64,000 bases of DNA, taken from an uncultured Acidobacteriota bacterium (GTDB lineage: Bacteria; Acidobacteriota; Blastocatellia; RBC074). This document shows positions 1,180 through 51,711 of the stretch, piece by piece (position 1 is the stretch's first letter; each line of letters opens with the position of its first letter). Where the stretch lies: NCBI GenBank assembly GCA_963796275.1, contig CAWCKY010000004.1, positions 1,504,001 to 1,568,000 on the forward strand, given 5' to 3'. Position numbers and translations under genes: made by a program. The notes under the pieces were generated by a model that was not told the DNA's origin, searched no databases, and saw only the letters and a program-made list of their open reading frames with translations.

Positions 1180-4011
1180 TTATAAAAGCGCCTCGTCTAT
1201 CTCGATCAGTCCTCGCGCCGCCAGTCCTCGCGGATAGACAGTGGCCAGCCACGCTATAACCTTTGTCAGCGGCCAATCCCGCCTGAGCGCCGATACTCTA
1301 GCCCTCGCGTTACGCTCATATGGATTGGTGGTGAACGTCCACAATTCGGCGGGCGAGAGATCGAGTTGGATCATCTCCACGATCTGATCCTGTCCCGATC
1401 CGAGCGCCAGGACGTATTGCGCATACTCTCCCGCGATGTTGTGGATCGCGCTGATCGCCGCCGCCGCGTTTTCCGACAACCCGGCGTCCGCAATCAGCTG
1501 CGAACAATCGCCGATCTGCTTGCCGATGACCTTGATACCGGCAGTCTTCGTGACATCGTGGATTCCGGCAAAGTCTTCGTATGCATGCGTCGCCAGCATC
1601 GTCACGACCGCCTCTTTGCGGCCCATGCGAGCTCCTTTTTTGATCACCCGCAGAATCTCAGGGTACTGCGCCGCGATCTTCCAGACCTCGTCAAAGATCA
1701 GAAGCGCCGGCGTTCGCGTCCCGTCCGATTTGAGCCGGCCTATCGAACGCACCACTCGAGCCGCGACACGATTTGCCAATGTCTCGCGCACGTCCTGGGG
1801 GAAGGCGTCCAGACTGTCGAGTTCATAAACGTCATACGGCGAATCTGCGGCAAAGTCGGGATGCGTCGGCGCATCGAGCCAGGGATGGTCGCGATACTTC
1901 TCCAGGGCCAGCGCCAGCGTCGCGGCGCGCTCGCGCAATCCCACCGTCTGGAATGGATAACTTTCGAGCATCGCAAGCAGATGCGAATGCACTGGCTCGT
2001 GTTTCGGTCTGTCGTGGCCGTTCCGAGGAACTTCATTCCTGTAGACCTCGGTGATGACATTGGTGAGGATATCTTCCGCCACGTTGTCATCCGGCTTGCC
2101 CCTGGCCAGTTTCATCGCATCCATCACGACCAGCGCGATCTGCGTCTCGTCGGGCATCTCTCCCAGCTCCAGCCCCGGATAGTCCCAGACGTTAATGGCG
2201 CGCTTATCGTCTATGCTGAAGCGAAGATGTCTCCCTCTCGTCACATCGGCGTGCGGGCCCAGCGACTCTCCAAAATCCACGGCGCGCACCAGCGCTTCCG
2301 GCAAGGTCGCGAGCACGTCATTGATGACGCGGGCCATGAATGTCGATTTACCGCTCCCCGGCTCGCCGAGCACGAGAGCGAGCGGAGAGCTGATCTTCGC
2401 GCTGTCAAAGAGGTTCAGGCCGATCAACCTTCCAGTCGGCGTCGAGCAGAGCGTGTGCGGCCTCCGCGCTCCTTCCCATGCCGATTCAACCGGGGCGAGC
2501 GCGGCGAGCGATCCCGCGACCTCGGTGATCTCCCTGCCCATCGGTCGATGATCTGCTTCGCCGACGATCGCCCGGTGATATAAGGCACGCAGGGAATCCG
2601 GTTCCTCGCGCGCCGCCTCCACTCCGGGGATCGATTGCATTGCTGTGACCATCTGCTCGCAATACCTGTCGAGATTGTCGAGAGACTGCCTCAGTTCACC
2701 TCGCGTGCGTGCCGGTTCCGCGTAGATGACGGCGTAGAAACGCGTATCGATCAGCGCTTCTCTCGATCCGGTGACGTGATCGCGAACGGTTTCGAGATCG
2801 AGCAGCGCCGCGCGCGCTTCCGGTGACTGCTTCACACGCCCGTCCGCGCGTGTGTACGAGCGTCGTACCTGGCGTATGCGCCGGTCGAGACGTTTTGTGG
2901 CCTTGCGTTGGTCGAGGTATGTGAACTCGGCGATGATCGTGTGGCGAAAATTGAGTGACGGATTCAATGTCAATGAGCGCAATGCATCGGCCGTAATCGC
3001 CGGCTGCGGTGGAGTGAACATCGAGACGATCGCCGCTGGATGTGCCCCGTGCATAATGTGCGAGCCGCTTCCGTCTATCGTCTCGCCGCAGAGATATTCA
3101 CGAATGTCGAAGCCCGGCACAACTGGCAGTATCGGAACACTCCGCGCATTCTGCCTGTGGCCCAAATAGATCGCCTCCCACAACTCTTGCCGGTTGAAAC
3201 GCCGCAGTGACAACGGACATTCGCGCTCGATGAGGCGAAAGACCTTCTCCGCCCTCCCATACGCTTCCCGTTCATCTTTGAGGAGCCGGCGCACCACGCC
3301 GTCGTCGGCGGTCTCCGCCCAGATCGCGCGAATTGTTTTGGGAAGTTTCGTAATGCCGTGCTTTCCAACCTCATCCAGAGCGGCGGGAATGAACGCGCTC
3401 AATCCGCTGTTTGTATCATCTCCCTTCTGACGAACCGGCACGCGCGCCCAGATCGAGAGCGCCTGCCGGCGATAGCTGTGCGCCGCCGCCGCTGCCGCAT
3501 AGAAATCGATATTCATCGCGTGCAGCAGTGCCGCTTCAGGATGCACCAGCGCGGGATCGCCCAAGGCCGCAATATGCGCGTTGATCGCGGCGCCAGGGTC
3601 GGGACCGGACGAAAAACGGAACTGGATCACCGTCCCTGGCGGCTTGTCCACGGCGAGCATTCGCGCCAGTTCGTCACAACGTGCCTCAACGACATGTTCG
3701 TGCGCGAGCATCGTCGGCGCCGTCTGCGCCTCCCACGCGCACGTGTAGGATCCGTCGGTGTGCCGCAGAGCGCCGTCGCAAAATCCGGCAATGGAAGAGT
3801 CGCGCTTTCGACCCGGAGGTGAGGCGAGTTTCAATCGTTCTTCTTTATGTTCCGCAATTCGCCGGTGAAGTTCCGCTTCCTCGCTCCGCTTCCATGCTTG
3901 CAAATCTCGACGGGCGCGAAGCGCGATGGGCAGCAGACGCGATCCGGCGCTGATGCCCAAACCCGCGCCTGCCGCCGCGATGGCGCCTCCGATGATCGTT
4001 AACGGTTCCAT
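1180..4011 (-). CDS. virB4: VirB4-family T4SS ATPase
   Basis: 943 aa; Walker A GEPGSGKS, Walker B LLIFDEVW, C-terminal GARMGRK motif; preceded by VirB2/VirB3-like genes. Confidence 0.9.
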   Translation of the reverse strand: MEPLTIIGGAIAAAGAGLGISAGSRLLPIALRARRDLQAWKRSEEAELHRRIAEHKEERLKLASPPGRKRDSSIAGFCDGALRHTDGSYTCAWEAQTAPTMLAHEHVVEARCDELARMLAVDKPPGTVIQFRFSSGPDPGAAINAHIAALGDPALVHPEAALLHAMNIDFYAAAAAAHSYRRQALSIWARVPVRQKGDDTNSGLSAFIPAALDEVGKHGITKLPKTIRAIWAETADDGVVRRLLKDEREAYGRAEKVFRLIERECPLSLRRFNRQELWEAIYLGHRQNARSVPILPVVPGFDIREYLCGETIDGSGSHIMHGAHPAAIVSMFTPPQPAITADALRSLTLNPSLNFRHTIIAEFTYLDQRKATKRLDRRIRQVRRSYTRADGRVKQSPEARAALLDLETVRDHVTGSREALIDTRFYAVIYAEPARTRGELRQSLDNLDRYCEQMVTAMQSIPGVEAAREEPDSLRALYHRAIVGEADHRPMGREITEVAGSLAALAPVESAWEGARRPHTLCSTPTGRLIGLNLFDSAKISSPLALVLGEPGSGKSTFMARVINDVLATLPEALVRAVDFGESLGPHADVTRGRHLRFSIDDKRAINVWDYPGLELGEMPDETQIALVVMDAMKLARGKPDDNVAEDILTNVITEVYRNEVPRNGHDRPKHEPVHSHLLAMLESYPFQTVGLRERAATLALALEKYRDHPWLDAPTHPDFAADSPYDVYELDSLDAFPQDVRETLANRVAARVVRSIGRLKSDGTRTPALLIFDEVWKIAAQYPEILRVIKKGARMGRKEAVVTMLATHAYEDFAGIHDVTKTAGIKVIGKQIGDCSQLIADAGLSENAAAAISAIHNIAGEYAQYVLALGSGQDQIVEMIQLDLSPAELWTFTTNPYERNARARVSALRRDWPLTKVIAWLATVYPRGLAARGLIEIDEALL

Positions 4012-4358
4012 ACCACTTGTCTTTCACCCCCGATGATCCATCGCCGCCTCGGCTGTCGCGCTCTATCTATCGGGAGCGCGCGCCGATGGATCGGGCTTGT
4101 AAACATTGCGCGTGACCTGTGCTGCAGCCAATAAGGACGCCGCCCAATACGCGCGTAGTTGAAGAAGGCTATGGAGAGCGCCGCTGCGCTCAGTCCCGTC
4201 CACAATTCCAGCGGCGCTCCCCATAGCTTCAGGTCGAACAGAAACGGCGTCGAGTAGGCGATCAGCGTGGCCACAATGACGAACTTCCAGTCCGAGATGA
4301 GCACGCCGAATCGCGCCACCGGCAAGTAGATGTTCGGCCTGATCGATCTAAGCCTCAT
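3999..4358 (-). CDS. VirB3-like small membrane protein
   Basis: 119 aa from MRLRSIRPNIYLP, two TM segments, overlaps the virB4 start. Confidence 0.65.
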   Translation of the reverse strand: MRLRSIRPNIYLPVARFGVLISDWKFVIVATLIAYSTPFLFDLKLWGAPLELWTGLSAAALSIAFFNYARIGRRPYWLQHRSRAMFTSPIHRRALPIDRARQPRRRWIIGGERQVVWNR

Positions 4359-4372
4359 GACTTGTCCCCGCT

Positions 4373-4825
4373 TCAATTTCCCAGATCGGTATCTAAATTG
4401 ACTGCATTCCCCTGGCTGAAACTGTAGATGAGCGACAGGATTCCACCCAGGCTCATACAAATGCCTCCGCCGAGCATCTGCCTGCCCCAAGCCTTTTCCA
4501 TCATGATGTTCGCCGAACCCCATCCCACGCCGCCGACGCCCAGAAGGAAGAGCAGGTTCCGCCCCCATCTGATCGCCTCCCGCACGCCGCTGCCCAACTG
4601 CTGATCATTGCCGCCGAATAGATTGCCGCCAGGCGTTTGCGCAAACGCGGGAACGGTCATCAGTAACACGGTGGCGACAAGGATCAACACAGGTTCAATA
4701 GCCCCAATCAGAACGGCGAGTTGAACAAATGAACGACCCGCTCTGGCAACGCGCGAGCGTTCAAACAGGTCGTCATCCATATCGCAAATACCTGAACGCA
4801 AACGAATCCCTCTCAAGCTATACAT
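4373..4825 (-). CDS. VirB2/TrbC-like pilin
   Basis: Long leader ending PAFA-Q, then two Gly-rich hydrophobic helices; first gene of the virB2-3-4 series; start codon uncertain. Confidence 0.65.
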   Translation of the reverse strand: MYSLRGIRLRSGICDMDDDLFERSRVARAGRSFVQLAVLIGAIEPVLILVATVLLMTVPAFAQTPGGNLFGGNDQQLGSGVREAIRWGRNLLFLLGVGGVGWGSANIMMEKAWGRQMLGGGICMSLGGILSLIYSFSQGNAVNLDTDLGN

Positions 4826-5030
4826 ATGCTCTACTCCATGGTCGATATGATTTGTGTCTGATTCGCCCGCCTTTTCGCCGCGACCGCACATCCGAATCCG
4901 CAGGAATAATTCCAAGAACTCACAGCGGGCAGTTGCGCTCACATAGCAAATCAAACCTCGTGCCACACATTCGCTTGCGGCATCGCTGTTGCTGAGTTAG
5001 CCTGTCGAACTATGTGATGGCGGAGGATGA

Positions 5031-5773
5031 ATGAAGAGGACTGAAAACATCCTGTATTGCAGAGATTTTCTTGTTGATGATTGCTACTACGGCCAGCTGC
5101 GCAAGAAAAAATGTCGAACGATCGCGTGCGAGCAAATGATCGCTCGCAACGAGGCGAAGCACCTGCGCTCGCGTCAAAACCTGATCAGGATTCTACGCGA
5201 TCAGCCGAGCTTCTGGATCGAGTTGCAGGCAATAGCGAGGCGGCTCAAAACAGAGCCCGCGTGGTTGTTGAATGTGATGGCGAGCGAATCATTGTTCGAT
5301 CATACAGCTCGCAATGGGCTTTCCGGACAGACCGCCACAGGATTGTTGCAGTTCATCGAGAGCACGGCGCGGAACATGGGGACGACCACCGAAGCGATCA
5401 GTCGAATGAGCCCTGTCGAACAATTGCGCTTGGTCGAGAGATACCTCACGCCGTTTTGCGGCCGTCTCAACAGCCTGGCCGATGTTTACCTGGCGGTTTT
5501 TCGAGGCTTCATCGTTAAAGGAGGAGATGCGACAGTACATCGCGCCTCTCGATAAATCAAGTAAGAGAGCAGCGTATCTATTCGTTAAACAGGTGGCTCG
5601 ATTTCGATGGTGACGGCAAGATATCCAAGGGCGAGCTGGCGCTCGCGGCGCTCGCCATCGGCCGATTCCAACCAATCACGCCACGGTCCGGCGGGAGACT
5701 CTATCGCAACCCTGCGGAAGCCCCTGATCCTAAGACTGAAACTCCACAGACCCGTTCGATCTATTTTCGTTAG
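5031..5773 (+). CDS. Lytic transglycosylase (VirB1-like), frameshifted near 5540-5570
   Basis: SLT motifs MASES...ATGLLQF...TA; continuation in another frame RIYSLNRWLDFDGDGKISKGE to TAG at 5771-5773. Confidence 0.75.
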
Positions 5774-5875
5774 CTCAATTCTTGCCACTCAATCATCGTT
5801 CTCCGTTACGTTGCCAGTCACCTTTTGAACGCGGTGACTGATACTCGATCAGGCAGAAACCCCAAGCTTTACTTA

Positions 5876-6010
5876 GGCTGTCGGTGTATCCGACACAGCG
5901 CGTCGGATGTTCGACAAAAGGGGTCACAGGAAAACGAAGAATATGTTGAATGAAGCTATTATGCGAAGGAGAGCAAGAGGTGCCGAGACTATCGACACGG
6001 CAATATCTAG
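5876..6010 (+). repeat. Left copy of ~135-bp degenerate direct repeat with three TGTCGR-N4/5-YCGACA-like palindromes
   Basis: Aligns by eye end to end with 14755-14887 (GGCTGTCGG...TGTTGAA.GAAGCTATTATG.GAAG...CAATATCTAG). Confidence 0.85.
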
Positions 6011-6452
6011 GTAGGCCAGCTGTTTTACGGACTGTTTTACGTCTGGTAAGGGCGGAAACGAAAAAACAGGGCGCTTTAGCAGCTTTAGCGTTCTTCCCCC
6101 TATGACTTTAGTCCTCGGGTTTAGACGCTCCGCGTGTCACGCCCGGAGGCAGCCAGCGCTCAGCCGCCAGGTCGCGGTCCTGCTGCGAGATCTTCCCAAC
6201 AGTGTCCCTCGTAATCCAGTGCGCGATAGATCCGACTGCCCCAAAATCCTGGGGCCCGGGAATGATCTCTGCGCTTTCGGCCTTTGCCCGAGCGAATGTC
6301 CGTCTACGTCTTCGACGTAGTGAATTGGCTACGCTTTGAAGCGGTCCGAGAGTTGATTGAGCTTGGGTTGTTTGAACTATATCGTCCCATCAAAATCTAA
6401 CTTTGACAAAGTAGTATTAAGGAATGCGTCAATCACTATCTAGCGAAAACGA

Positions 6453-7043
6453 TTACGCCTCAACATTTCTGCCCGCCTGCTTACTTTTTAATTCCCTTTC
6501 TGCTTTTCCACAAACTTCAATTCCCAACATCCTGGCCTGCTCCACTAACTCCTGCCATTGTTCCTGCTCGCGCGCCAGGCGTTCCTTGACTTCGGCTTCT
6601 TGCTGAGCAATCTGCTGTCGCTGAGTGTCGAACCTCTGCCGGCCGCCCTCTGTCATCTTCATCTTCACCGTTTCCAACTGCGCCCGCTCGCTCGCTTCCA
6701 GGTCTGGCTGCCCCAATCGCTCGTCATACTCGGCCATTTCCTGGTTGAATCCACTATCTTGCGCTTCCAGCCGCTGTTTGACCTTTTGCGCCTGCTCGAT
6801 CTCGCGCTCCAATTGGGCCAGCTTCGCCTGCTGCGATTCGAGCCGGAGCTTAAGCATTTCGATCTTCAAACTTCGCACTTCCGCCGCCAGGCGCCGCACC
6901 AGGGCGGCGAGGTCCGGGACCTGCCGGGCAGCGTCATTCGCGGCAGTTGGCCCCGCAGTTTGGCCGTTGGTCTGCGCCCAACCTGTGACCGTGGCTATGA
7001 TCACCAGACAGGCAGTCGTCACAATCAATCTCGCTCGTTGCAT
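6453..7043 (-). CDS. Secreted coiled-coil hypothetical protein
   Basis: Signal peptide (GWA-Q), Q/E/L-rich heptads, RBS GGAGAG upstream. Confidence 0.75.
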   Translation of the reverse strand: MQRARLIVTTACLVIIATVTGWAQTNGQTAGPTAANDAARQVPDLAALVRRLAAEVRSLKIEMLKLRLESQQAKLAQLEREIEQAQKVKQRLEAQDSGFNQEMAEYDERLGQPDLEASERAQLETVKMKMTEGGRQRFDTQRQQIAQQEAEVKERLAREQEQWQELVEQARMLGIEVCGKAERELKSKQAGRNVEA

Positions 7044-7209
7044 GTTTATCTCTCCGTGTGAAGCGCCTGTCGCCAGACACGGGTCATCAACTCAATGAAC
7101 GAGGCGGGAGGATTGCGAGCGATCTTCCCTGGCATCCGTCCGGCAGGATGCCCATCGCCACAATCCTCGTCGCTTCGCTCGCGCGTGGCGCCAATCGCTA
7201 TCAGCTCAC

Positions 7210-7740
7210 TTACTGCTGCCTATAGATGAGCACCACGTTGTCAATTTCGAAGTCATCGAGTTGGCCGCCAATGTTGCCGTCTGCGTTCCGAGAGCCGATG
7301 AACAGCCTGTTGCCGGCCTCTGTAAGCGTGTTATTCCCGACTATCCCGATCTCCGAAAAGTACTCGCCGTCATGGTCATCATGGTGCGGGAGCAGGGCGT
7401 TCGTGACCGCGACCCCATTGATCGTGATGACGTTGTTACTGAAATCCACGTCCCTAGTCCGGAGCAGCAGGACCGCTCTCATGCCGGCATTAACGTCTGG
7501 AGCGTCGAAGATGACCTCGTAATCATCGCCGACGCCGCTGTCGCCGAGATGCACAGGGCTGCCGATGAGGACGCGGAAGCTGGATTGGTCGACCAGGGCG
7601 GACGAAGCCAGCGCATTAGACGCCGACGTCGCGCTACCGATCACCGAGAGTGGCAATGCCAATGACAACGCGGCCAGAATCATCGCGAATCTCGCCACGC
7701 TCTTTTTTCCAAATTTGCTGAGTGTATGCTGTTTAATCAT
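7210..7740 (-). CDS. Secreted beta-rich hypothetical protein
   Basis: Signal peptide; beta-sandwich-like pattern ending LDDFEIDNVVLIY; RBS AAAGGA upstream. Confidence 0.75.
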   Translation of the reverse strand: MIKQHTLSKFGKKSVARFAMILAALSLALPLSVIGSATSASNALASSALVDQSSFRVLIGSPVHLGDSGVGDDYEVIFDAPDVNAGMRAVLLLRTRDVDFSNNVITINGVAVTNALLPHHDDHDGEYFSEIGIVGNNTLTEAGNRLFIGSRNADGNIGGQLDDFEIDNVVLIYRQQ

Positions 7741-8253
7741 GTATTTTTTCCTTTCAAGTTAGTTTCAGTTACTCCAATCAAGCGCCCTCGGCCAACGACT
7801 CCCCCTTCTGTTCAACCTCCGGGAGATAGCCGATGCGCCTTTTCGAGCGATCATTTGCTCGCTCTATTGAGAGAAGATGCGAACCGGGAGGAGATATGGA
7901 CAGCGGGCGAAAAAACTTTTCACTTGGTGCCCTCCTTCTCCTCCGCATCGAGCCGCCGCGCGAGATAAGCCGTCTACTACACTGCCCACAAATGCTCGGT
8001 CTCCACAACAGTTGCGGATGACAGGTTGGCTCGGAGCGCCCGCGCGCACGGCAGCCACTCTACGTTCTCTCTCAACCGCCTCTGGCACTCTGCGCAGCGA
8101 ATCACGTGCTCGTCCACTGCAAGCAACTCCGCTGGGTCGAGAATGCGCTGGCGGCAGCGTGCGATCTGTTCCTTTGTCAGGTGCGGTGTAATTTTGGATT
8201 CCCCATGTGGCTAGTGACGCGAAACTCCGCCGCGTATAGCTACCCGCGCGGAA

Positions 8254-9405
8254 TTATTTTTCCTGCGCGTTCCCCAACCGCCGTCCCAGGCGGCGGCGCG
8301 CCGCCTGCCGCAGGTTGATCACATTCTGGCGCGTGGTTCCCAGCATCACGGCAATCGTCGCGTCCTCAATCGGCAGTTGCTGCCAGAGCAGTGAGAACTT
8401 TTCGCCATAACTCCGGAGCGATGCGGCCCGCCGCTGCTGCTCGCCGCTCAAAGGCAACAAGGGCCACAAACGGTCGAACTGCTCGTCGGCGATTTCGAGC
8501 GTCGCGCCGATGCGCTCAATGGAGGCCACCCCGTGCCACCAGAAGAGGGCGATCTCACCGTCGGCGTCGGTGAAGTTGAGCAGGTAAGAGATCCTTTGCA
8601 GCGGCGGCAACTGCTCTACCTCGCGCCATACGGAGGCCAGAAACTGTCGCCACTGGACCTCCTCGTCGGAGCGCGGCCCGGTATCGGGCAAGGCGGCCAG
8701 CCAGCCCGCTTGCACGTCGTCGTCCACGGGGTCCGTCTCCGGCGCGTAATCCCTGACGCCCTGCAACTCCGCCACGAGGTTGATCAGATCGTCGAACCGC
8801 AGCGGGTGTCCGAAGTCGTTGAAGATGGCCGTCAGCAGTTCAGTGTGATCCAGCCGCTGCGCGTCGCGGCACGCCAGGACGCGGGCGCTGAAGCTCTGCG
8901 GGTCGTCGAGCATTTGCCGGAAGCCGCTGCCCTGCGGCAAGCCCGGCGTCTGGTCGCGCCAATCCGCCAATCCGCAAAGCTGCGATTGGTCAGCCCCGTA
9001 CCACAAGGCGAACTGCGGCTGGCGGTTGAGCAGATGACGGATGAAATCTTTCAGACTGCGGCGGCGCGGGCTTTCGCGCCGTAGTTCACCGCGGCAGACG
9101 TTGGCGGCGACGACCGAGACGTAATGGCCGAAGTCGGAAATGGGTTTGCCTGACGGGTTGGCCCGACAGTTTTGCAGCAATTCGACGACGCGGATGATGA
9201 TTTCGCTACGAAGGTCTTCGGCCTCCCGGCCGCGCCCCGCGACCCGTTCGATCACGGGCCGGGCGTGTTGTTCGATCAGAATGACCAGCCAATCGGCAGC
9301 CTCGGCCTCATCTGCGGCTTGCAAAAGGGGCACAAGCAAAGGATCGGGTTGGCCTCCTTCTCTATAGATGTGACGGATGATTACGCGAGATTTGGCTGTT
9401 CGCAT
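8254..9405 (-). CDS. Atypical ECF-type sigma-70 family factor with large insertion
   Basis: Region-2-like EAEDLRSEIIIRV...FGHYVSVVAANVC; region-4 HTH DATIAVMLGTTRQNVINLRQAARRRL. Confidence 0.65.
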   Translation of the reverse strand: MRTAKSRVIIRHIYREGGQPDPLLVPLLQAADEAEAADWLVILIEQHARPVIERVAGRGREAEDLRSEIIIRVVELLQNCRANPSGKPISDFGHYVSVVAANVCRGELRRESPRRRSLKDFIRHLLNRQPQFALWYGADQSQLCGLADWRDQTPGLPQGSGFRQMLDDPQSFSARVLACRDAQRLDHTELLTAIFNDFGHPLRFDDLINLVAELQGVRDYAPETDPVDDDVQAGWLAALPDTGPRSDEEVQWRQFLASVWREVEQLPPLQRISYLLNFTDADGEIALFWWHGVASIERIGATLEIADEQFDRLWPLLPLSGEQQRRAASLRSYGEKFSLLWQQLPIEDATIAVMLGTTRQNVINLRQAARRRLGRRLGNAQEK

Positions 9406-9668
9406 ATATGAACTCCATTCGTGAGAAATAGCTCTGTAGGATGAGTGGCCAGGGGAAGGCCATCATTCCCGATTATGTGATTTGTTGTGGCGCGCTATGG
9501 CTTTAGCGCGTAGGCGCATTCTCGAAGAAGTCCCAGATAGCGCCCATAAAATTCCATTCGGACCATTTGTGTGGCAGCGCCGGGTCGATAGCGGAAATGA
9601 CGACAAGGCCGTTCTTCGGATTCGTTTATCGCATCAACTCGACGCGGGCCGGCGCGCCGAACAGTGTG

Positions 9669-10279
9669 TTACTCGTACAGCATCGTGGTGATGTTCTCCT
9701 TGGAGATGGAGCGCCAGAAGGTATCGGCGGGATCCGAGCGGTTGGTCCATCGCTCGATGCGCGCAAACAGCCCTTCAATGCGCGGCCGGTAGCGGCGAAT
9801 CAGAAAGCCGTCTCGCATTCGTTCGTCTATCTTCCCATTCTCCTTGAGCACTGGAACCAGGTCTTCAGCGCCCGAGAGAATAAAGATATCGGACTCTTCG
9901 CCGCCGCGATATTGAGGCATCCCTTTGTCGGTCTTTCGTGTGATCGACGGCAGCGAGAGCTCCAGCCAAAGCCGAACGCACCGTTTCCGGCGCCGGAATC
10001 GTAAGAGAGTGACAGTTGCGGGCCGAATCCCGCTCTGCCGGAGCTGGTGTAGATCGGAACAGAAAGAGAGCCCGTGCCGGTGACGGGATTGGCGGCAAAC
10101 TTCTCGCCCATTCCACGAATCGCACCACCGCCTTTGGGCAATGAGATAGAAGGAGGAGCGAAAATGCTCTTCTCCTGTTCGCTTTGACCTTTTTGAGACG
10201 GCTGCTCTTTAGCTGAGGCTTCTTTTTTCTGGTTCATGATATGACTCGATGGTGGAGCATAGGGTTCATTGACATACAA
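9669..10279 (-). pseudogene. Truncated SpvB/TcB-type (Tc toxin B component) N-terminal fragment
   Basis: ISLPKGGGAIRGMGEKF..NPVTGTGSLSVPI..GFGPQLSLSYDSGAGNGAFGFGWS, then frameshifted PQY..SDIFILSGAEDLVP..YRPRIEGLFARIERW; stops after ~200 aa. Confidence 0.85.
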
Positions 10280-10393
10280 TTACATCTCACTCACGGACGT
10301 TTGGCTTAGTAGACGTATAGCCGAGTGTTCATAGATTGCCCTGGCCACTGCTTTGCCTTACAATGATTTTTCTCTCCGGATTTGGCCATTCCG

Positions 10394-10595
10394 CATCAAT
10401 TAAACGCTGTTATCTTTAATCCGGATATCGCGGCAGTAGCGTGACAGAACAAAGAATACTGTTAACATCCTTTGCAAGTCCTGGGAAAGTTCTGGGAAAT
10501 ACCTGAGAAAACACTGGGAGGTCCCGACTCTCATGCAGCCTTCAGCCAGACTCGTCTACCATTTTGGCCTTTTCCGGCTCGACACCGGCGAACGC
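10394..10595 (+). promoter_or_regulatory. Divergent promoter region with four CTGGGAAA-type repeats at 11-bp period (10481, 10492, 10503, 10514) plus start of the regulator gene
   Basis: Repeats read directly from sequence; whole block duplicated at 14467-14670. Confidence 0.7.
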
Positions 10596-13500
10596 ATCTT
10601 GCTCTACAACCAGCAACACCTTCCGATCACGCCTAAAGCATTTGAGATTTTGATGGCCCTGGTCGAAGGCGGCGGGCAAATACTCAAGAAAGAAGATTTG
10701 ATGCAGAGGGTTTGGCCCGACGTTTTTGTCGAGGAGATCAATCTGGTCAAGAACATCTCTGATCTGCGCAAGACATTGGGCGGCATGGATGGGGGGCAGG
10801 AGTACATTCAGACGATCCCCAAACGCGGCTATCGCTTCATCGTTCATGTCAAACCGTCGTGGGAAGAAGTTGGCGTGATAGAAAACTCCAGCGGCGCATT
10901 TATCGACAATGAGATGGAGCTTGCCAGCGGCGCAGTGGGAGGTGGCGAGTTGATCGGGCGTGAAACCGAATTGACCCGGTTGCAAAACTGGTTGGAAATG
11001 GCGCTGCGCGGCAAGCGGCAGGTGGTCTTCATCACGGGAGAGCCGGGCATCGGCAAGACCACCCTGGTTAAAGCGTTTCTCCAGCGCGTTACTGCCAATC
11101 GGCGCTTTGCGATCGCGTACGGACAATGTCTTTAGCAGTTTGGTACGGGTGAGGCCTACTTGCCGGTCTTTGAAGCGCTCAGCCGGCTGTGCAGTGAACC
11201 GGGACGCGAAAACTTGGTTGAGTTGCTCGCCGAACGAGCGCCGACCTGGCTCGCGCAGATGCCAACGCTCGTCAGCGTCGCCGAACGAGCGGCGCTACAC
11301 GAGGAGATTTTCGGCGCGACGCGTGAACGGATGCTGCGCGAGATGACCGAAACGATCGAAATACTGACTGCTGAAACCCCGCTCGTGCTGGTCCTGGAAG
11401 ACTTGCATTGGAGTGACGACTCGACATTGAGTCTCATCACCGCGCTGGCACAGCGAAGCGACCGGGCACGGTTCCTGCTGATTGGAACCTGGCGTCCGGT
11501 TGAAGTGAATCTAAGTGGGCATCCGCTCAAAGCTACCAAGCAGGAACTGCTGATCCATCGCCAGTGCGCAGAGTTGCAGCTCGGATTTCTGACTGAGGCG
11601 GCAGTGAGCGAATACCTCTTGATGCGTTTTCCGCAACATCGTTTCCCGGATGGTTTGGCGCATCTGATCTATCAACGGACTGACGGTAATCCGCTGTTTA
11701 TAGTCAATCTGGTAGATTACCTGGCGGCACAAGAAGTGATCATCGCTCGCGACGGACAGTGGGAATTGAAAGCCGCACTGACCGAGATCGAAATCGGGAT
11801 GCCGGAGAGTATTAAACAGATGATCGAGAGGCAAATCGATCGGTTGAGCCCGGATGAGCAGCGGTTGCTCGAAGCCGCCAGTGTGGACGGTATCGGTTTT
11901 TCTGCCTCATCTGTAGCTGCCGCACTCGATGTAGATGTAGTCCAGATTGAGGAAAAGTGCGATTTATTGGCGCGCCACGATCAATTCCTGTGCTCATCCG
12001 GGATCAGTCAATGGCCGGATAGGACAGAGACACCCGGCTACAATTTCACCCATGCACTCTATCACAGCATCTTCTACCAACATGTTTCCCCGGCTCGGCG
12101 AAGTCAGTTGCATTATCGTATCGGTGAGCATAAAGAGTTGGTTTATGGTTCGCGCGCGGGCGAGATCGCGGCAGAGTTGGCGATCCATTTCGAGCGGGGG
12201 CGCGATTATCGCCGGGCTGTTCAGTATCTGCGGCAGGCTGCCGAGAACGCTCTCCGCTCTTTTGCTAATCGTCAGGCGATTGACCATCTCACACTGGCGA
12301 TTGAATTACTGAACCGGATTCCCTCGACGGAACAACATGGTCCCCAGATGGAAATCCTGGAGATGATTGGCTTGGCCTCTCGCTCGATGAATGACATGCT
12401 GGGAGCCATTAAGACATATGAGGACATGGTCTTGTGCGCTCAGAAAGAAGGGCGGCTTGAGAGTAAGATCAGAGCCCTTCTCTGCTTGTGCAGCGGGCTT
12501 TACTGGACTGATCGCAGAAAGTGTTTAGAAGTTGTTGATCGAATCGGTGAACTCAGTCTTCAGCTTCAAGACGGGATACTTAAAACACATGCGCGCGGCC
12601 ATTGTGGGAGTTTGAATCTCCTTTTGCGGGGCTGGCATGACGACGACTTCTTGGCGGTGGCTGCTTCCGTTGAAGCGACCCGGGACACCGATGATCACAG
12701 GCTATTGGGGGAGTGTCTATCACTGTATTCATTCCATCAGGGCTGTCGGGGAGAGTACCGAGCAGCCTATCATTCGGCGGAAGAAGGATTACAAGTGACG
12801 CGAGAAGTCGGCGATGCTTTCCTCTTTATGTCATGTCAATATTCTCGTGCCCTGGCCGTATTGCATCTTGGCGAATGGGGGGAGATGCTGCGGTTTGTCA
12901 GAGATGGGATGGAAATGGCGGGGAAGAATCTTAATCAGGTATGGACAATGGCTCTTCAACTCCTACTGGCCTGGTTACATGAAATGGCAACTAACTTCGA
13001 GCGGTCGCGTGAGCTCTTCGAATCGGTCTATGGACGGACACAAGCAGGCGAGGTCAACCATATTATAGCTACTATCGGGTTAGGGCACGCCTATTTGGGT
13101 CTCAAGCAATACGATCGTGCCTTCGGCTGCTTCAGTGAAATCACCCAGTGGCTTGAAGACGGGCACATGACTCATGAATTGGACTAACTATGTAATTCTG
13201 CATCATGGTCTGAGCCGATATTGGCTTGGGCAGGGAAATTTTGCAGAGGCACGCTACCAAGCTCAGCAAATGCATCACCTCGCCTCACAGCCAGGCGAGG
13301 TTACTTACATGGCGCTTGGAAGGCGGATATTAGCCGAGATCGCAATGGCAGAGCAGGACTATGAACAGGCTGAAGCGGAAGTCACACAGGCATTCGATGT
13401 TATTAACCGAGCCGAAGCACCGTTAGCCGAGTGGCGGGTGTGGCAAACAGCGGCACGGCTCCACTCAGCCAGAGGGGAGCACGCCGAGGCGGCGCGTAAC

Positions 13501-13614
13501 TGGGAATGCAGCCTGACAATACTCAATCGGCTGGCTGACTCACTTGGTGAGGACGAACCGCTGTATCAACATCTAGTTGAGCGTTTGCGAAAACAGGTGG
13601 TCTACCCGCTTTGA
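10533..13614 (+). CDS. OmpR-type winged-helix + AAA/STAND ATPase + TPR transcriptional regulator; in-frame TAG at 11133-11135 and frameshift near 13175
   Basis: Trans_reg_C motifs TPKAFEIL..WPD.FVEE..IQTIPKRGYRF; Walker A GEPGIGKT; LVLEDLHW; TDGNPLF; C-terminal helical repeats. Confidence 0.85.
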
Positions 13615-13685
13615 GTTGTTTTGCTTGGTGGATGTTTACCAACCGCATAAAAGCTAACTCTCCCCTTCTCTCCCTCGCAACACTC

Positions 13686-14464
13686 TCACTCATGCCGTCT
13701 TGTTACCTCACTTACTGCTGTTGAGTTCTTTGAGGCGCGCTGCCAGGCGCCCGATTCGTGACAACTCAGGCAGGTTATGCGGGTATTCTCGGCGGCCTTG
13801 GGATCCTTCTTCCATTTCCTGGCGACAGATTCATAGGCAGTGTTGCTTAGCGTGGCGATTATCTTGTCGAGGTGTTGGGTCGACTCTTCCGTGCGCCCGG
13901 TCCGCATAGCGGAGGCGGCGAGCCCGCCGAGAAGCTCGCCGCGAAGATGCAGTGGAAGCTGGTTGACAACGGGAGCCTGCTGTTTCCAGAGCGCCTGGTA
14001 AGAGTCATAGGCTTGCGACCAGGCGGCGGCGCGATGTTCCTTCGGCAGCCGGTCACCGAAGGTCACGTAAGTGGCTCCGGCAATCGCGGAAGCCTCGCCA
14101 TCTTTCGAGCCGATCAGTTGGGCTTGAGCGAATAGATCGAGCGCCTCTCGGTATTTCTGCTGAAACTCATCGTTGCGATTATTTTCGTGGGCGATCACAG
14201 CGCGGTAAAGTGTTGCGCTGGCTTTCCAGGCCAAAAGTGAGGATTTTGCGGCGGGACGTTTTTCGAGCAGCGTCTGAATATTCTTTTCTCCCCTTCTAAA
14301 ACGCTCCATGTCATTGGCCAGGAAGCCAGCAAAGAGATCTCTCGCACGAGAGTATGGACAGTGATTCGAGTGTCCGAGAGTGGCGGTTCCGGAGATTGAG
14401 CCATTGCCACGGTGACACATAACACCGAAAGAAAAGTCTTGCTGATTCGATACATGGTCTGCAC
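13686..14464 (-). CDS. Secreted helical protein with C-terminal CXXCH (possible c-type heme), frameshifted near 14340
   Basis: Signal peptide in ORF 14195..14464 joins ORF 13686..14420 ending ITCLSCHE. Confidence 0.6.
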
Positions 14465-14466
14465 CT

Positions 14467-14670
14467 CATCAATTAAGCACTGTTATCTTTTAAACCGGAT
14501 GTCCCGGCAGTAGCACGGCAGAACAAAGAATACTATGAGCTCCCTCTGCACGTCCTCGGGAGTTCTGGGAAAAACCTGGGAAAACTTTGGGAGGAATCGA
14601 CCTTCATGCGGCCGTCCGCAACCAGATTCATCTATCACCTTGGCCCTTTCCTGCTGGACACAGCTGAACC
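14467..14670 (+). repeat. Degenerate duplicate of regulator promoter plus first ~20 codons
   Basis: CATCAATTAA..CTGTTATCTTT..CGGCAGTAGC..CAGAACAAAGAATACT..CTGGGAAA repeats..ATGC shared with 10394-10595. Confidence 0.85.
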
Positions 14671-14754
14671 TGGACTCCCCAGTATCAGTTGACCTGCCGT
14701 GTTCTCCCCGCCCGAATCAGAGCGCCCAACTCGGGTTTAATAATCCTTTTCTCC

Positions 14755-14887
14755 GGCTGTCGGAATATCCGACACGAATGCGTCGGATTATTCGACATGG
14801 AGGTCACGGACAAACGAAAGTTGTGTTGAACGAAGCTATTATGTGAAGAGAACAAGACTGCCGGACAACCGACGCTACAATATCTAG
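14755..14887 (+). repeat. Right copy of ~135-bp direct repeat, candidate recombination site
   Basis: Perfect palindrome TGTCGGA-ATA-TCCGACA, two degenerate ones, and core GTTGTGTTGAA-CGAAGCTA-TTATGTGAAGA. Confidence 0.85.
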
Positions 14888-15168
14888 TACAAAAGGGCTG
14901 TCATGATCACAACTAATCGCATCTGTCTCTGTCCAATTCATTTCTCTCTTACACATGGCTCCCACGCGAAGAGTGATCGCCGTTTGTCAGTATCCTGAAT
15001 ATACGGAGAAATTCTCTATACACTTTTCTGCGCAAACTTACGAATTTGAATGCATTCCTGCGTTTTTATTCCAACAGTAATCGATCGACCGCAATCGGAA
15101 TGGCACATAGCTTGTTTAGAGGTTCAGTCAGGTATTCGCATTATTTCTAGCGAAGGGAGTCTTACACG

Positions 15169-15408
15169 ATGAACGAGGCTGGCGTGCAAATAAGGGATTA
15201 CATGAGAAACTTCGTCGCCAATCATGTGGATATTAGCGAAGGCAAGGTGGCGCTCAAAGTTTCGGCGAGAGAGGTAGAGATACTCGGAGAGTCACTGGTG
15301 AAGGAATTGATCGGCTGGGCGATGGAACCCACAAGTTCCCCGTGGCCTGAATATGGTAGCTACAACACCGATTTCCTAGCCGGCCTCGGCACACCAGCAA
15401 CTGGATAG
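15169..15408 (+). CDS. Small hypothetical protein heading the right-hand transfer operon
   Basis: RBS AAGGGAG, 79 aa, co-oriented with the virB8-10-like genes. Confidence 0.45.
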   Translation: MNEAGVQIRDYMRNFVANHVDISEGKVALKVSAREVEILGESLVKELIGWAMEPTSSPWPEYGSYNTDFLAGLGTPATG

Positions 15409-15421
15409 ATGTGAAGACGAC

Positions 15422-15655
15422 GTGGTGGTCAAATTCACATCCCGGGATGTGCTGGCGCTGGGCCAGTTATTCATCCTGGGAGTACTCAGATGGGTGCAGA
15501 GCATACAAATAGCGCGGCGACGCGCTGACCGACTACGTGAAGCCATCCTCGCGAAACAGGCGGAGTTTAAGGCTGAATTTGAAGAAGACGATAAAAACGA
15601 CAGCGCTAAAGACCTGTTTAACCAAAGCACAAAGTGGAAGGTTCGATATGAATGA
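15422..15655 (+). CDS. Small membrane-anchored hypothetical protein
   Basis: One hydrophobic segment; stop overlaps the next ATG. Confidence 0.45.
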   Translation: MVVKFTSRDVLALGQLFILGVLRWVQSIQIARRRADRLREAILAKQAEFKAEFEEDDKNDSAKDLFNQSTKWKVRYE

Positions 15656-16437
15656 TGTTCAAACCATAGAACTTCATCCAGGCCGTGACGTGATCGCCGG
15701 CGAGACAGGCAGGGCCGAATCGGGTCACATCGAGGAACGCGATGCGGCCACCACACAATCGTCTCTTCATACCTTATACCGACGATCCCGCAGATGTCAG
15801 AACCATACTGAGCATGGCCGCGACGGGAACGCTGCTGGCGCTTCTGCTGCTCGCGAGCGTCGCGCTCAACATCTGGCAATACTGGCGGCGGCCTGATCGG
15901 ATCGTCGTGGATCGTTCCTCGGGCAGAGTGCTGCAGATCAACGACCGTGAATACGGCGAGACGGAAGCGGTCAGACTGGGTCCTGACAGTCTCACCAACG
16001 CTGATAAGCAGTACATTGCAGGGGAATTCGTCAAGGCGATCTATCAGGTCGATCCTGCAACACGCCCCCGCGACATAGAAAGGGCGCTCCGAATGATGTC
16101 CCCCAACAGCGCCCTTCTATTCGCCCGCTACCTCAAGCAAACAGGCATTCTCGACAAACAACGGGCCGAATCCTGGCAGGCGGTCTGGACGCCGCAGGAC
16201 ACCTCGGTCGACGGGGCGGTATCCCTACACGGTGCGCGTAATCGGCAAGCAGGAGATTACAAAAGTCATTTCCGGCGCCCCTAACAGGAAGCGCGCCAAT
16301 TGCACCTGACGCTAAAGCTCGCCGCCGATCCGCAAAGGCGGGCCGACCGCAACCTACGCTCAGGGTTTCTCGTCTCATCATTCGACTACCGGGAGCTCGG
16401 AACGCCGGAATCATCGGAGGTGGAGGCGCCTCGATAG
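15648..16437 (+). CDS. VirB8/TrbF/TraK-like protein (frameshifted at ~15740, ~16215, ~16290)
   Basis: Single TM then IVVDRSSG; C-terminal RRADRNLRSGFLVSSFDY resembles the VirB8/TrbF NPxGFxV motif. Confidence 0.7.
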
Positions 16438-16458
16438 GCTGCGAGCAAGGAGAAGATC

Positions 16459-17698
16459 ATGTCCAAACACAGGCACGGCACTATTACTCTGGCTGTGATC
16501 GCTATCGCCCTCTTCACCAGCTCTGCGAAGGGGCAGGTAAATTCAAGCCGCGACAGAACGGTGGAAACCAGGAAAGAGAGCACGCAAGCGCCACAGCAAG
16601 GATCGAGGGAGTGAGAGCGGCGCAAGTGTTCCCTCCCCGGTCGTGCTTGCCAATCCGCCCTCGGCCGATTTCCTAAGTGGTGAGGCGAACGTGGCGGTGA
16701 GCGGCAATCAGAATCCGGTCATCAGGCTCGGGCTTTCTCCCAACGGCGTGACGATGATCGAATTCCCTGTCGCTGACCGTTTTTTCGCCCTCCATCCCGG
16801 CAACAGCGACCTGGTGACCATCGACGAATCTCCCACCAAGGGAACCGATCATTTTCTGGTCGTGCGGGCAGGCAGCGGCTTCTCTTCTCCCGTGAATATG
16901 GCTAATGCGCGCCGCGCTCCAGTCACATCGATCATCGTTCAGATGCAATCGGGACTGGTCATGACCTTTCTCTTCTACCCGGTGCAGCAACTCTCTGAGC
17001 AGGCGCATCGCGTGGTGATCGCTTATGACCGGGAAGAAGTGATCGCGGCGCGGCGAGCCGCAGGACTGGCCGTCAACCTCGATGGCGCGGAAGCAGGGAG
17101 ACCGCGTACCACATCGTTGCGCATATCTTCTCCGCCGCCACCTGCGCCGGATGAATCGGCGCCCGATCTCGCTCGAACACCGCCCACGCCAAAACTGGTG
17201 GCTGACACTGCCGAAATCGACACAACACAGCCCCCGATAAAAAGCGATCACAAAAGCAATGATCCGGCACGACTCGCCAGTCTGGCTCTCACCGAAGCGA
17301 CCAGATCGCCGCGAAGCTTCAAGAAATGGAGCGACTCGGTGCATGGGCTATCGCTCTCCGTCACTCCCGTACAGGAAGCAGGCAAGAATTCTCAGCTGGT
17401 CGTCATCGCGGCCCGCAATACGAAGAAAATGGATGCGCGCATCGTGGCCGGACAGCCTGATATCTATCTGGAAACGCACGACGGCAAGGGCAGACCGCTT
17501 CAAATTGAGCCGGTCAGAAAACTCGCGATGGAAACCACGGCGACCGATGGAGTAATTCCCGGCGGCGAGACCAGATACTACGCGCTCGTATACGAGGCTA
17601 AGATTATGGGCGCACGGCAGCAATTGCGTGCCGCTCTCGGTCAGACGACATCGGCCGATGAACCGGCGACCGCGATCCTGACCTCGTCCAAACGTTGA
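16459..17698 (+). CDS. VirB9/TrbG/TraN-like outer-membrane core protein (frameshift ~16620)
   Basis: Signal peptide from 16459; VIRLGLSPNGVTMIEFP beta domain, Pro-rich linker, second beta domain; lies between B8- and B10-like genes. Confidence 0.65.
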
Positions 17699-19122
17699 AG
17701 GAATCACAGATGAATCCATCCGGAGATGGCTGGAAACAGAATATCGCAGTGGGCGTCGCGGAGCGCGATACCGGCGACACGAACGAGGAGCCGGCCACAT
17801 TTATCTCTCTCGATGATGACGAAGACGACAATACGGAATCTCCGGCTGATCAATCGGGGCGACGCGCAGCCAGCAGGCGCAAGCGGATCGCAGGGGCAGT
17901 GTGTTTTCTACTCATCTTAATCGTCGCGGGTGCAGGTCTATGGATGATGGTGGGCGGCGGCGGTAAGACGAAAATCAATGTACCAGTGCGTGATAACGCC
18001 CAGAGAACCGATCAGGTGGCGCGCGAGAATGCTGACGAGACGGCGCAGGCTATCGCCGAGGTCCGCAGCGCTACAGCTTCACCGACGCCAACCGCGAGCG
18101 CGTCTCCTGTGACAGAGGCGCCAGAAGCGACAGGTGGAACGAGAACGATCATTATGCCGACCACGCCAGTCACGGTACCCATTGAGGGAACCGGCTCCGT
18201 CGTTTCACCTCCCTCGACGGAAGCGGACCCGAGGGAACAAGGCGGCTCATCTCGACCACAGGCAGGCGCGGCGGCGAAACCAATAGGAATTGATTCGGAA
18301 CGCAATCCCGAGCGCTCGATCCGTTGCGCTCCCACACCCTTGCCTGTCTCCGCGCACAAGGCCTTCACCAGCGCTCCCGCGAACGCCAAGCCGTCTGAGG
18401 ACGCTGTGTCCGTGATTCTCAAGCAACCCGAGCCTCGTACTCGTGTCGTGTTACCTCCATTCGGCGCAATGTTGCCTATCAGGACGACGGGTGCTCTCTA
18501 CACTTTGCGCCCTGGCCTCGCTCGCTTCGAACTCACGCGTGATGTGCGCGGGCAGGGTTGGCATCTGCGAAAGGGCACGATGGTCATTGGCCAACAGCAG
18601 GGCAGCGAATATGACCGGGCATATATCTCGCTTATGGGCTTCATCGACCCCGAATCCAAACGGTTCGTGAAGGCGCCGGGAGAAGTGTTGGGCGCGGACG
18701 GCGCGCCGGGATTGCAGGGCAAGCGAAGACAGGTCAGCAGCCGGTGGGGGCGCGTTCTGGGGCGCGTGGCGACCAGCGCTGTCTCCCTGGGGCAGGCGGC
18801 GCTGGCGCGCGGAAACTCGACGACCGTCGTTCTGCCCGGTGCGGTCGCGCCTGAATTGATTCCGAGCGTGGCCAGCCGCCGTGAATTTGTCGAAGTGCCT
18901 GCCGGCACACCCGCGTTCGTGATGATCACAGATCTGCCGAAAGAGGCGCAGGCAGTAGACGCCGAGCCGCTCGTTGAAGGAATCGAAGAGCCGCTCACGG
19001 ATGAAGAATTGGCCGAGCTGCTCTCATCGGATTCGCCGGAGAAGATTCGCGCCGCAATGCCACGTATGACCCCAGAACTGCGGCGTATTGCCGACGCCGT
19101 GTTGAAAGAGCAGAACAGATGA
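17695..19122 (+). CDS. VirB10/TrbI/TraM-like core protein
   Basis: Acidic N-terminus, one TM, long Pro/Thr-rich stalk, C-terminal beta domain (LPPFGAMLPIR..GADGAPGLQG..VEVPAGTPAFV). Confidence 0.75.
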   Translation: MKESQMNPSGDGWKQNIAVGVAERDTGDTNEEPATFISLDDDEDDNTESPADQSGRRAASRRKRIAGAVCFLLILIVAGAGLWMMVGGGGKTKINVPVRDNAQRTDQVARENADETAQAIAEVRSATASPTPTASASPVTEAPEATGGTRTIIMPTTPVTVPIEGTGSVVSPPSTEADPREQGGSSRPQAGAAAKPIGIDSERNPERSIRCAPTPLPVSAHKAFTSAPANAKPSEDAVSVILKQPEPRTRVVLPPFGAMLPIRTTGALYTLRPGLARFELTRDVRGQGWHLRKGTMVIGQQQGSEYDRAYISLMGFIDPESKRFVKAPGEVLGADGAPGLQGKRRQVSSRWGRVLGRVATSAVSLGQAALARGNSTTVVLPGAVAPELIPSVASRREFVEVPAGTPAFVMITDLPKEAQAVDAEPLVEGIEEPLTDEELAELLSSDSPEKIRAAMPRMTPELRRIADAVLKEQNR

Positions 19123-19180
19123 CTGACATAGTCATTCTTTTTTGTAAGACCATTACACAGGTCAGAGGATTACTACAGCA

Positions 19181-20863: not shown

Positions 20864-20882
20864 TTCCGGAACCGAGGTTGTA

Positions 20883-46620: not shown

Positions 46621-46639
46621 CGCATTCGAGATGGTCTCA

Positions 46640-48837: not shown

Positions 48838-48852
48838 ACTCCTCCTCTCTAA

Positions 48853-51705: not shown

Positions 51706-51711
51706 AACAGA

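Follow-up and report, generated by a model that had tools for sequence, protein, structure and literature searches.

Copies of a module, possibly a sigma-54 enhancer, border cargo at an intergenic hotspot in a family of Blastocatellia conjugative elements

We analysed a 64,000-nt stretch of DNA from an uncultured Acidobacteriota bacterium (the window), which carries a conjugative element whose type IV secretion system (T4SS) genes flank, on both sides, 8.7 kb of accessory DNA held between two copies of a short module. The intergenic point occupied by this DNA is a cargo hotspot across the Blastocatellia element family to which the window belongs, and the cargo found there is usually bracketed by module copies. 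An earlier interpretation made from the letters of the window (the sequence-only reading) had taken the copies for a dimer-resolution site of the cer/res type, co-opted for the capture of cassettes. We favour, tentatively and at a strength a little short of probable, the view that the module would be a duplicated sigma-54 enhancer (upstream activating sequence, UAS) of the conjugation operon and not a Xer/res site. The window corresponds to C4:1504001-1568000, on a chromosome-sized contig of the host genome (G000; 9.46 Mb in seven contigs, labelled by C-numbers), and C2 and C3 also denote the two paralogous elements found on those contigs. Related loci were obtained by scanning a VirB4 alignment against one genome per species, which gave 68 loci; L-numbers label these related loci or fetched stretches and G-numbers label genomes. 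The record titles of the window organism's relatives name Blastocatellia, Acidobacteriota.

The left copy of the module lies at 5867-6010 and the right copy at 14746-14887, both on the + strand and in direct orientation, with a module length of 135-146 bp. Each copy contains a pair of neighbouring 6-5-6 palindromes, separated by an A/T-rich central stretch from a third one, after which comes the 10-mer CAATATCTAG. The boxes of the left copy are at 5879-5895, 5901-5916 and 5981-5997, followed by the 10-mer at 6001-6010, while those of the right copy are at 14758-14774, 14781-14797 and 14859-14874, followed by the 10-mer at 14878-14887; the third box of the right copy has a spacer of 4 nt in place of 5 nt. 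The direct repeats of ~135 bp and the three palindromes per copy that had been described from the letters were thus both recovered, and the copies could be extended slightly on the left. A gapped pairwise alignment of 5876-6010 with 14755-14887 gave 110 identical columns out of 139, and the two copies differ at 21% of positions. These differences are unevenly spread, with 4 in the 46 positions of the boxes and 10-mer versus 25 in the 93 positions elsewhere (Fisher p = 0.014), a distribution which suggests that both window copies stayed under constraint. The homology between the copies stops directly after CAATATCTAG, at the 3' edge of the module and ~40 nt past the core proposed by the sequence-only reading. 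A 25-nt core pattern was found exactly twice in the window with up to three mismatches, and not once in 100 shuffles. The proposed scan of the host genome for further copies found only the left and right copies when the left one was compared with all 9.46 Mb (E 4e-79 and 7e-20; the four other rows had E > 1), and paired boxes were likewise observed only at these two places.

The closest relative (L028; VirB4 86%, p79 75% and p180 91% identical) has no cargo: a single unit, in which the three boxes and the 10-mer recur, lies between the lytic transglycosylase (SLT) gene and p79. The flank upstream of the left window copy resembles the flank upstream of this single unit, and the sequence after the right window copy aligns with the sequence after it, so the outer flank of each window copy is ancestral. 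In a three-way alignment the two window copies were 70% alike and either was 58% alike to L028, and CAATATCTAG was invariant in all three. A metagenome scan with the pattern of box 1 and box 2 returned 11 contigs, 8 of which are of the L028 type with one unit each. The four that show both flanks (L098, L101, L103, L105) all have the order SLT gene, unit and p79 without cargo. These eight contigs are close kin and were therefore counted as one lineage, not as eight cases. The empty allele that the sequence-only reading had proposed to look for is present, then, in L028 and in the four contigs with both flanks. The distance from the SLT gene to p180 is 1491 nt in C2 and 1254 nt in C3, compared to 10205 nt in the window, and the cargo DNA of the window is missing from both paralogous elements and from L028. 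The other three metagenome contigs (L099, L106, L107) were unrelated matches. One of these, a low-GC contig, carries at least six tandem GGCTGTCGG-N5-CCGACA-like palindromes with a 23-nt period after a gene end (L107:200-370), and its half-sites are probably the same as those of the window boxes by chance.

Internal direct repeats were searched in 53 sequences with both anchor genes (50 relatives, C2, C3 and the window), the 18 of 71 sequences without an anchor gene having been left out. Eight of the 53 had direct repeats around extra DNA at the hotspot (the window, C2, L044, L046, L047, L049, L083, L088). The two units of C2 are 144 nt each, 88% identical and 39 nt apart, and L049 has three copies; L055 and L058 add two more loci with two or three copies each. 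We found the hotspot filled in the window, L030, L044, L046, L047, L049, L055, L058, L076, L083 and L088, and empty in L028, L098, L101, L103, L105, C3 and most relatives. At least 10 relatives other than the window have unrelated cargo at this point, in 8 of them between two or three module copies, and the junctions are tight at the 3' edge of the module in 7 of the 8 relatives with copy-bracketed cargo. The repeat of L044 includes the 3' end of the SLT gene, and its homology stops directly after the last box. Some cargos are single genes of 0.8-1.4 kb (L088, L083), and cargo can be completely different between backbones that are 96% identical. The data for L049 (three copies, with a kinase and DUF2971 cargo), and the counts that include it, come from a genome flagged as unpublished (G349 = G454). 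Empty alleles, together with unrelated cargo at the same backbone position, support the part of the sequence-only reading that had proposed a hotspot for the capture of cassettes.

The UASs of sigma-54 promoters are bound by bacterial enhancer-binding proteins of the NtrC/NifA/PspF type. Downstream of the right module copy, after 214 nt, the window contains an exact match to the -24/-12 (sigma-54 type) promoter pattern, TGGCACATAGCTTGT (15101-15115, + strand), located 54 nt before the start codon of p79. The family-wide form of this promoter is TGGCAC-N5-TTGT, and the motif recurs ahead of the homologous operon in L022-L028, C2, C3 and others, in DNA that is otherwise unalignable. A second -24/-12-like motif, TGGCACGAGGTTTGA (4951-4965, - strand; pattern search with one mismatch), precedes the leftward operon; matches of this type occur at chance level by themselves (3 versus 2.6 expected in the window), and its putative role comes from its position only. 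The host genome has one match to the sigma-54 family PF04552 (rpoN; C3:1419712-1420188, E 4.5e-58) and 60 matches to the activator family PF00158, fragments and weak matches included, which represent dozens of genes. The paralogues have other palindromes at the same position in a similar layout (TTTACG-TTT-CGTAAA in C2 and TTTCCA-AAA-TGGAAA in C3), the pattern expected of an operator that determines specificity. In L022-L027 the palindromes are of the GTGTGAC type, and the pair is inverted in L026 (reverse complement, 4960-5015) relative to L022-L025 and L027. A scan of 4700-6500 for sigma-70 promoters and terminators gave matches at chance level.

A clearer association with sigma-54 was observed in a sister clade. 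Seven loci of the Pyrinomonadaceae type share a block of 45-47 bp at the equivalent position, in a total of 16 copies. Most copies are identical or nearly so (10 are exact over 47 bp, and two middle copies have diverged), whereas the flanking backbones are just 80-96% identical and the cargos are mutually unrelated except for one 163-nt stretch. These cargos encode AbiU2, NucS/PDDEXK, NYN and HEPN proteins, a kinase with DUF2971, 8xMP genes and unknowns, and are mostly defence-like. The last block copy is followed by TGGAAC-N5-TTG at +35/+36 in 6 of the 7 loci, and in the exception, L058, a third copy lies beyond the locus. One element of this clade, in genome G058, encodes a sensor-less activator of 334 aa (L019:14214-15218) with only Sigma54_activat, AAA_lid_14 and HTH_8 domains, as well as a tyrosine integrase and an HTH_17 protein. 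Upstream of the xis-int pair of this element we found the palindromic half of the block, then ~113 nt (our count), then TGGCAC-N5-TTGAA. Elsewhere in G058, outside the element, full blocks stand at this spacing before xis-int pairs, and block and spacing are also found before xis-int in six of the seven single-copy loci from other genomes, the seventh being in a T4SS context. The block precedes, in this clade, the -24/-12 motifs of three kinds of operon.

The distribution of the block was examined in a sample of 401 genomes of the order, where it was present in 19 genomes with 34 matches. Seven single-copy loci were fetched, and four further single-copy genomes, one of them flagged as unpublished, were left out. 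The activator gene was observed in 19 related loci, and the identity of its product to the G058 protein was 87-100% in the 7 loci with the block versus 42-71% in the 12 loci without it. Judged by its placement and distribution, the sister-clade block behaves as a putative enhancer of the element-encoded sigma-54 activator, which would control both the T4SS and the excision operons. A recurrent Pyrinomonadaceae arrangement was also seen, consisting of an upstream gene, the 47-bp block, ~113 nt, TGGCAC-N5-TTGA, an HTH_17 gene and a tyrosine integrase gene (L094:4318-5930, L095:4039-4477, L109-L114), and three of the genomes have integrases of this arrangement that are 92-94% identical. The arrangement resembles companion elements, or the ends of an integrative and conjugative element (ICE), wired to the ICE activator. 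No partial block copies were found at the ends of the companion loci, and nothing convincing in the way of att repeats was found between the two ends of the G058 element. The G058 element has a canonical TGGAAC-N5-TTGCA (L019 ~5975-5995, - strand) immediately ahead of its SLT gene, ~730 nt before the first block, so the transglycosylase gene of this element may also be sigma-54 dependent.

We read the unit as an enhancer because the block of the sister clade is located upstream of the -24/-12 promoters of three kinds of operon and tracks the activator. The unit would accordingly be a cis-regulatory module of the ICE, made up of three dyad-symmetric, putative protein-binding boxes and a conserved 10-mer. 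The ancestral element would have had a single module between the SLT gene and the p79 operon, and in the window lineage 8.7 kb of foreign DNA would have come to lie at the module position, with one module copy kept on each side. The right copy would still face the rightward -24/-12 promoter, and the left copy would face the SLT gene and the operon running leftward. Flanked in this way, the cargo would separate neither operon from an enhancer, provided that an activator binds the window boxes and that both copies have continued to function. The sequence-only reading had itself named the alternative of a repeat that maps to an operator and not to a crossover point. Most of what we observed points that way, namely the location upstream of a -24/-12 promoter and the tracking of the activator by the sister block, while the window element has no cognate activator gene.

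Several observations weigh against the reading of the module as an enhancer. None of the 60 PF00158 matches falls in the window element or its two paralogues, and no sigma-54 activator was found within 10 kb of VirB4 in the window-type relatives. With no activator gene in the element or its paralogues, TGTCGG-N5-CCGACA has no assigned binding protein. The strict promoter pattern, checked in 31 loci that we had chosen, was present in 16 and absent from 15, and the -12 element is TTGT in most, versus the usual TTGC. The distance from module to promoter is 214 nt in the window (228 nt in L028 and 276 nt in C2), versus 36 or ~113 nt in the sister clade. After the first and middle blocks of the sister clade we found no -24/-12 motif, apart from one weak case (L046), so these copies, if enhancers, would have to work over a distance or stay idle. 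On their left side, internal blocks likewise had no such motif; two weak leftward matches adjoin first copies (L055, L058). The link between block and activator was seen within one clade and is therefore a correlation, not a case of repeated evolution. In L030 and L076, extra genes are present at the hotspot with no detectable repeats. Regulation alone cannot explain why cargo starts 0-2 nt after ...ACAACAGGG in all 10 of the first and middle block copies aligned, and it leaves equally unexplained the start of the window cargo at the edge of CAATATCTAG.

These last observations bear on the origin of the duplication, for which we incline, at roughly even odds, towards recombination using the module as a joint over passive insertion between pre-duplicated modules. 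The tight, polar junctions in the window, in L044 and in all ten sister-clade cases speak for the module itself as the joint, and the route would involve either a site-specific enzyme, as in the dedicated cassette system and the cer/res-type site considered below, or recombination within the short identical block. Of the passive routes, one would start with an insertion between modules that had already been duplicated and proceed by exchange between homologous flanks; the other would be a relic of two elements. These routes explain the truncated gene at the right junction of the window and the missing recombinase, but not the precision of the junctions.

It is possible, if on the unlikely side, that the block of the sigma-54 activator doubles as a portable recombination site. 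Cassettes with one block and no integrase would be inserted at the 3' edge of the resident block, building arrays before the T4SS operon. The cassettes, often of a single gene and mostly for defence, would be integron-like without an integron integrase, companion elements bearing an integrase could share the site, and the window would represent an old, decayed instance. Somewhat more doubtful is a dedicated cassette system, comparable in its logic to integron attI/attC, in which the module would be primarily a recombination site, with exchange at its 3' edge, and its regulatory role would be secondary or coincidental. A tyrosine integrase encoded by the ICE or by a companion element would then insert circular cassettes of cargo plus module. 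Such a system would account for the polarity of the sister-clade junctions, which are fixed on the ...ACAACAGGG side but shift by 0-45 nt at the left limit of internal copies, and for the ends of homology after CAATATCTAG in the window and after the last box in L044. It is also consistent with three-copy arrays holding two cargos (L049, L055, G348/G730), with the small single-gene cargos and cargo swaps described above, and with the block copies that adjoin integrase genes elsewhere in the genomes. Nevertheless, no integrase was found in the cargos or beside the arrays of relatives, nor in the window, and neither an excised form nor the same cassette in two contexts was seen. In three kinds of operon the block stands at a fixed distance from a -24/-12 motif, as an enhancer would, and the right-hand junction of the window truncates a gene. 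When the four strands of the window units were folded as single-stranded DNA, their stability was unremarkable relative to shuffles (z -0.5 to -1.9).

A relic of two related ICEs, once in tandem or recombined and reduced to a composite by later deletions, would need nothing special about the site, and we consider it improbable. The divergence of 21% between the window copies is within the range between related backbones, the genome has three paralogous elements, the L044 repeat contains the SLT 3' end, and some internal blocks of the sister clade have a diverged remnant of the SLT C-terminus just upstream. However, no other remains of a second backbone lie between the window copies, these copies are more alike to each other (70%) than to L028 (58%), and the same tight pattern is seen in at least four lineages with unrelated cargo.

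The module could also be the origin of transfer (oriT), nicked by the relaxase at its 3' edge, with strand transfer between oriT copies inserting or deleting DNA, but we regard this as quite improbable. In its favour, the junction is fixed 3' of an inverted repeat and its 5' extent varies, CAATATCTAG is invariant in the two window copies and L028, and the integrase-bearing companion loci carry a near-identical block, much as mobilisable elements borrow the oriT of a helper. In the xis-int operon of the element, though, only the palindromic half of the block is present, at the same ~113-nt distance from the -24/-12 motif as the full blocks of the companions, which suits an enhancer but not a second oriT. 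L026 has the box module in inverted orientation, and the box sequences differ among the three elements of one genome, whose relaxase genes have 65-70% DNA identity over their aligned parts. The stems are short and their fold is not unusually stable. We know of no nic site for this relaxase family. Integration mediated by a relaxase into an oriT copy has been described for TrwC (PMC3264647), and this lends the oriT some plausibility.

A cer/res-type site, with a core that XerC/XerD or a resolvase would cut and palindromes that would serve as accessory sites, is very improbable: despite the res-like layout of a ~135-bp unit with three dyad sites, a central A/T-rich stretch partly conserved between the window copies and L028, and tyrosine recombinases of Xer-like size elsewhere in the genome (ORFs of 307-359 aa), the C2 and C3 paralogues, on whose modules the same host Xer proteins would act, lack the proposed core there, and the homology ends at the 3' edge of the unit and not in the core. 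The core is only partly conserved in L028, no other site in the genome lies within 8 mismatches in 30 of it, and the sister-clade block has no such core. The absence of a recombinase gene from the window, which the sequence-only reading had reported, was borne out in a scan of 60 open reading frames (ORFs; 58 of them of at least 100 aa), none of which matched integrase, resolvase or transposase families; the 19 PF00589 matches of the host genome all lie outside the window. Resolvases (PF00239) had only two matches in the genome, on C1 and C6, and none on the contig of the window (C4).

The cargo itself (6011-14745, 8.7 kb, no strand assigned) consists of degraded accessory DNA by its Pfam matches and internal repeat, in line with the truncated genes that the sequence-only reading had placed between the repeats, with T4SS genes outside. 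It includes two unknown ORFs, a sigma-70-like gene (8254-9405), a fragment with an SpvB domain (9827-10279, - strand; a 150-aa ORF), an OmpR/AAA/TPR regulator in three frames (10533-13614, from Pfam) and a TPR ORF (13686-14420). The SpvB ORF matches the first 47 positions of the SpvB domain (Tc-toxin B / RHS-associated), and the rest of the protein is lacking. A second, truncated 5' fragment of a regulator-like gene (14464-14669) is cut off at the right module; it matches 10391-10593, which comprises the upstream region and 5' end of the regulator, at 78% identity. A locus on C1 (1284906-1286341) shares 87% identity with the first regulator gene of the cargo (10320-11763). Part of the cargo (6556-9649) is matched at ~95-98% identity by short contigs from four soil metagenome runs, one contig skipping 7921-8242, so close relatives of the cargo DNA exist elsewhere.

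The backbone of the window element includes a VirB4/TraC-like T4SS ATPase of 943 aa (1180-4011, - strand), which has weak Pfam matches to TraC_F_IV and the TraG P-loop and is 72-86% identical to its homologues in the paralogous and related elements. The first gene of the leftward T4SS operon, p197 (4376-4966, - strand), encodes a small membrane protein; tblastn matches to it in relatives begin at residues 44-51, and its true start is likely near 4830. The SLT gene (5031-5828, + strand; Pfam SLT) is frameshifted into ORFs at 5031-5555 and 5607-5828 (174 aa and 73 aa), compared to single ORFs of 258-260 aa in the paralogues, whose C-terminal motif recurs in the second window ORF. The rightward T4SS operon (15169-22718, + strand) was assigned from Pfam and synteny and encodes p79, p77, p180, p351, a TrbI/VirB10-like protein, an AAA ATPase and a coupling protein. 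It is followed by a relaxase of 1275 aa (23393-27220, + strand) with weak Pfam matches to MobL and MobA-VirD2 nucleases, and a homologue of this relaxase is present in the G058 element (L090:14166-16550). The three paralogous copies of the element in the host are found at -871 to 34688 in window coordinates, C2:687058-720530 and C3:45825-76190, and are ~65-72% identical at the DNA level. The DNA homology between the window and its paralogues (~-871 to 34688) is interrupted between 5673 and 15778. With its frameshifted SLT gene and no integrase, the window element is, on sequence grounds, a decaying remnant. In the C3 copy, stop codons interrupt the TrbI-like gene; tyrosine integrase genes were observed at C3:47308 and C3:78345.

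Further regulatory loci were noted elsewhere on the contig of the window. A frameshifted sigma-54 activator gene at C4:1635.1-1636.5 kb, which adjoins a Crp-like gene and a tyrosine integrase, has three TGTCG...CGACA boxes upstream of it (C4:1636642-1636697; L116:9642-9697), one of them perfect and two degenerate. This locus may be the lost cognate regulator of the window-type boxes. A second, more decayed module of Crp-like, activator and integrase genes is located at C4:1603-1613 kb (L117). We set aside an activator gene ~30 kb from VirB4 in G352 and G353, which is conserved in both genomes but lacks nearby GTGTGA-type boxes. The window has nothing that matches its region, and the gene may belong to the chromosomal neighbourhood. 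Two other features were also recorded. A tandem duplication of ~6 kb was seen upstream of the window (C4:1477852-1483820 and 1484263-1490241, 65-88% identical), and a PadR regulator gene (51712-52047) is located among five tandem permease genes of the MacB/FtsX type, of 827-924 aa each (window positions 44007-63609).

The seven public sequencing runs listed contain at most 9% of the sampled words. When contigs of four runs were compared with 4000-17000, depth in the two bins with the repeats was zero or close to it (at most 0.33) and no contig joined the left to the right copy, which is uninformative on excision, and most of the metagenome-run pieces mapped on 4000-17000 were less than 95% alike. 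A megablast of 4000-17000 against a plasmid collection gave no match, and neither did Rfam for the same interval at E up to 0.1. A DNA search of 60 related genomes with 14740-15660 found the organism's own genome only, and no tRNA genes were found in the window.

The elements described here belong to a family of Blastocatellia conjugative elements that is widespread, with 68 loci in public genomes, and as yet undescribed. The transfer and excision genes of this family are apparently wired to sigma-54 and, in one clade, to an activator that the element itself encodes; the borders of the hotspot are, in that sister clade, copies of the target of this activator. The passages retrieved in a full-text literature search held nothing on this element family, or on ICEs with sigma-54-driven T4SS and excision operons and duplicated enhancers. 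Should the block double as the joint at which cargo is exchanged, this would be a new way of building cassette arrays and would explain the movement of defence genes among soil Acidobacteriota. If it is not the joint, the family shows how an element accepts DNA within its transfer region while keeping control of both flanking operons. For the window the outcome is a correction, since its repeat would not be a Xer/res site and its element appears to be a decaying remnant; the interest lies in the module-bracketed cargo across the family.

Among known systems, cer/psi/dif sites and the res sites of the Tn3 family are of similar size, have three dyad subsites and can stand as direct repeats around a DNA segment, but the core here is not conserved among paralogues of the same host, the boundary of homology falls outside the core, no resolvase is present, and the context is that of a promoter. 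Recombination between oriT copies by TrwC of R388 would give a fixed joint 3' of an inverted repeat and flanking direct copies; the module differs in being tied to -24/-12 motifs before xis-int operons, which favours a regulatory site. Integrons resemble the arrays in having one site (attI/attC) per cargo, a fixed joint at the 3' edge, and small cargos without an integrase. Unlike integrons, the arrays and the window have no IntI-type integrase beside them, the site copies are near-identical sequences and apparently not hairpins conserved in structure, cargo orientation is mixed, and the site is tied to sigma-54 promoters. With the UASs of sigma-54 promoters the module shares clusters of dyad sites upstream of a -24/-12 promoter, a tolerance of inversion in relatives and, in the sister clade, a site sequence that tracks an AAA+ activator with a Fis-type HTH. 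It differs from them in that the window element has no cognate activator gene, that the promoter is 214-276 nt away, and that the module is duplicated around inserted DNA, an arrangement on which the literature search brought up nothing. ICEs of the SXT/R391 family have variable-region hotspots, and the hotspot described here is like these in its fixed intergenic backbone position and its unrelated, in many cases defence-like, accessory genes. What sets it apart is that the cargo is mostly bracketed by direct copies of a putative regulatory module, tight at one edge and in arrays of up to three.

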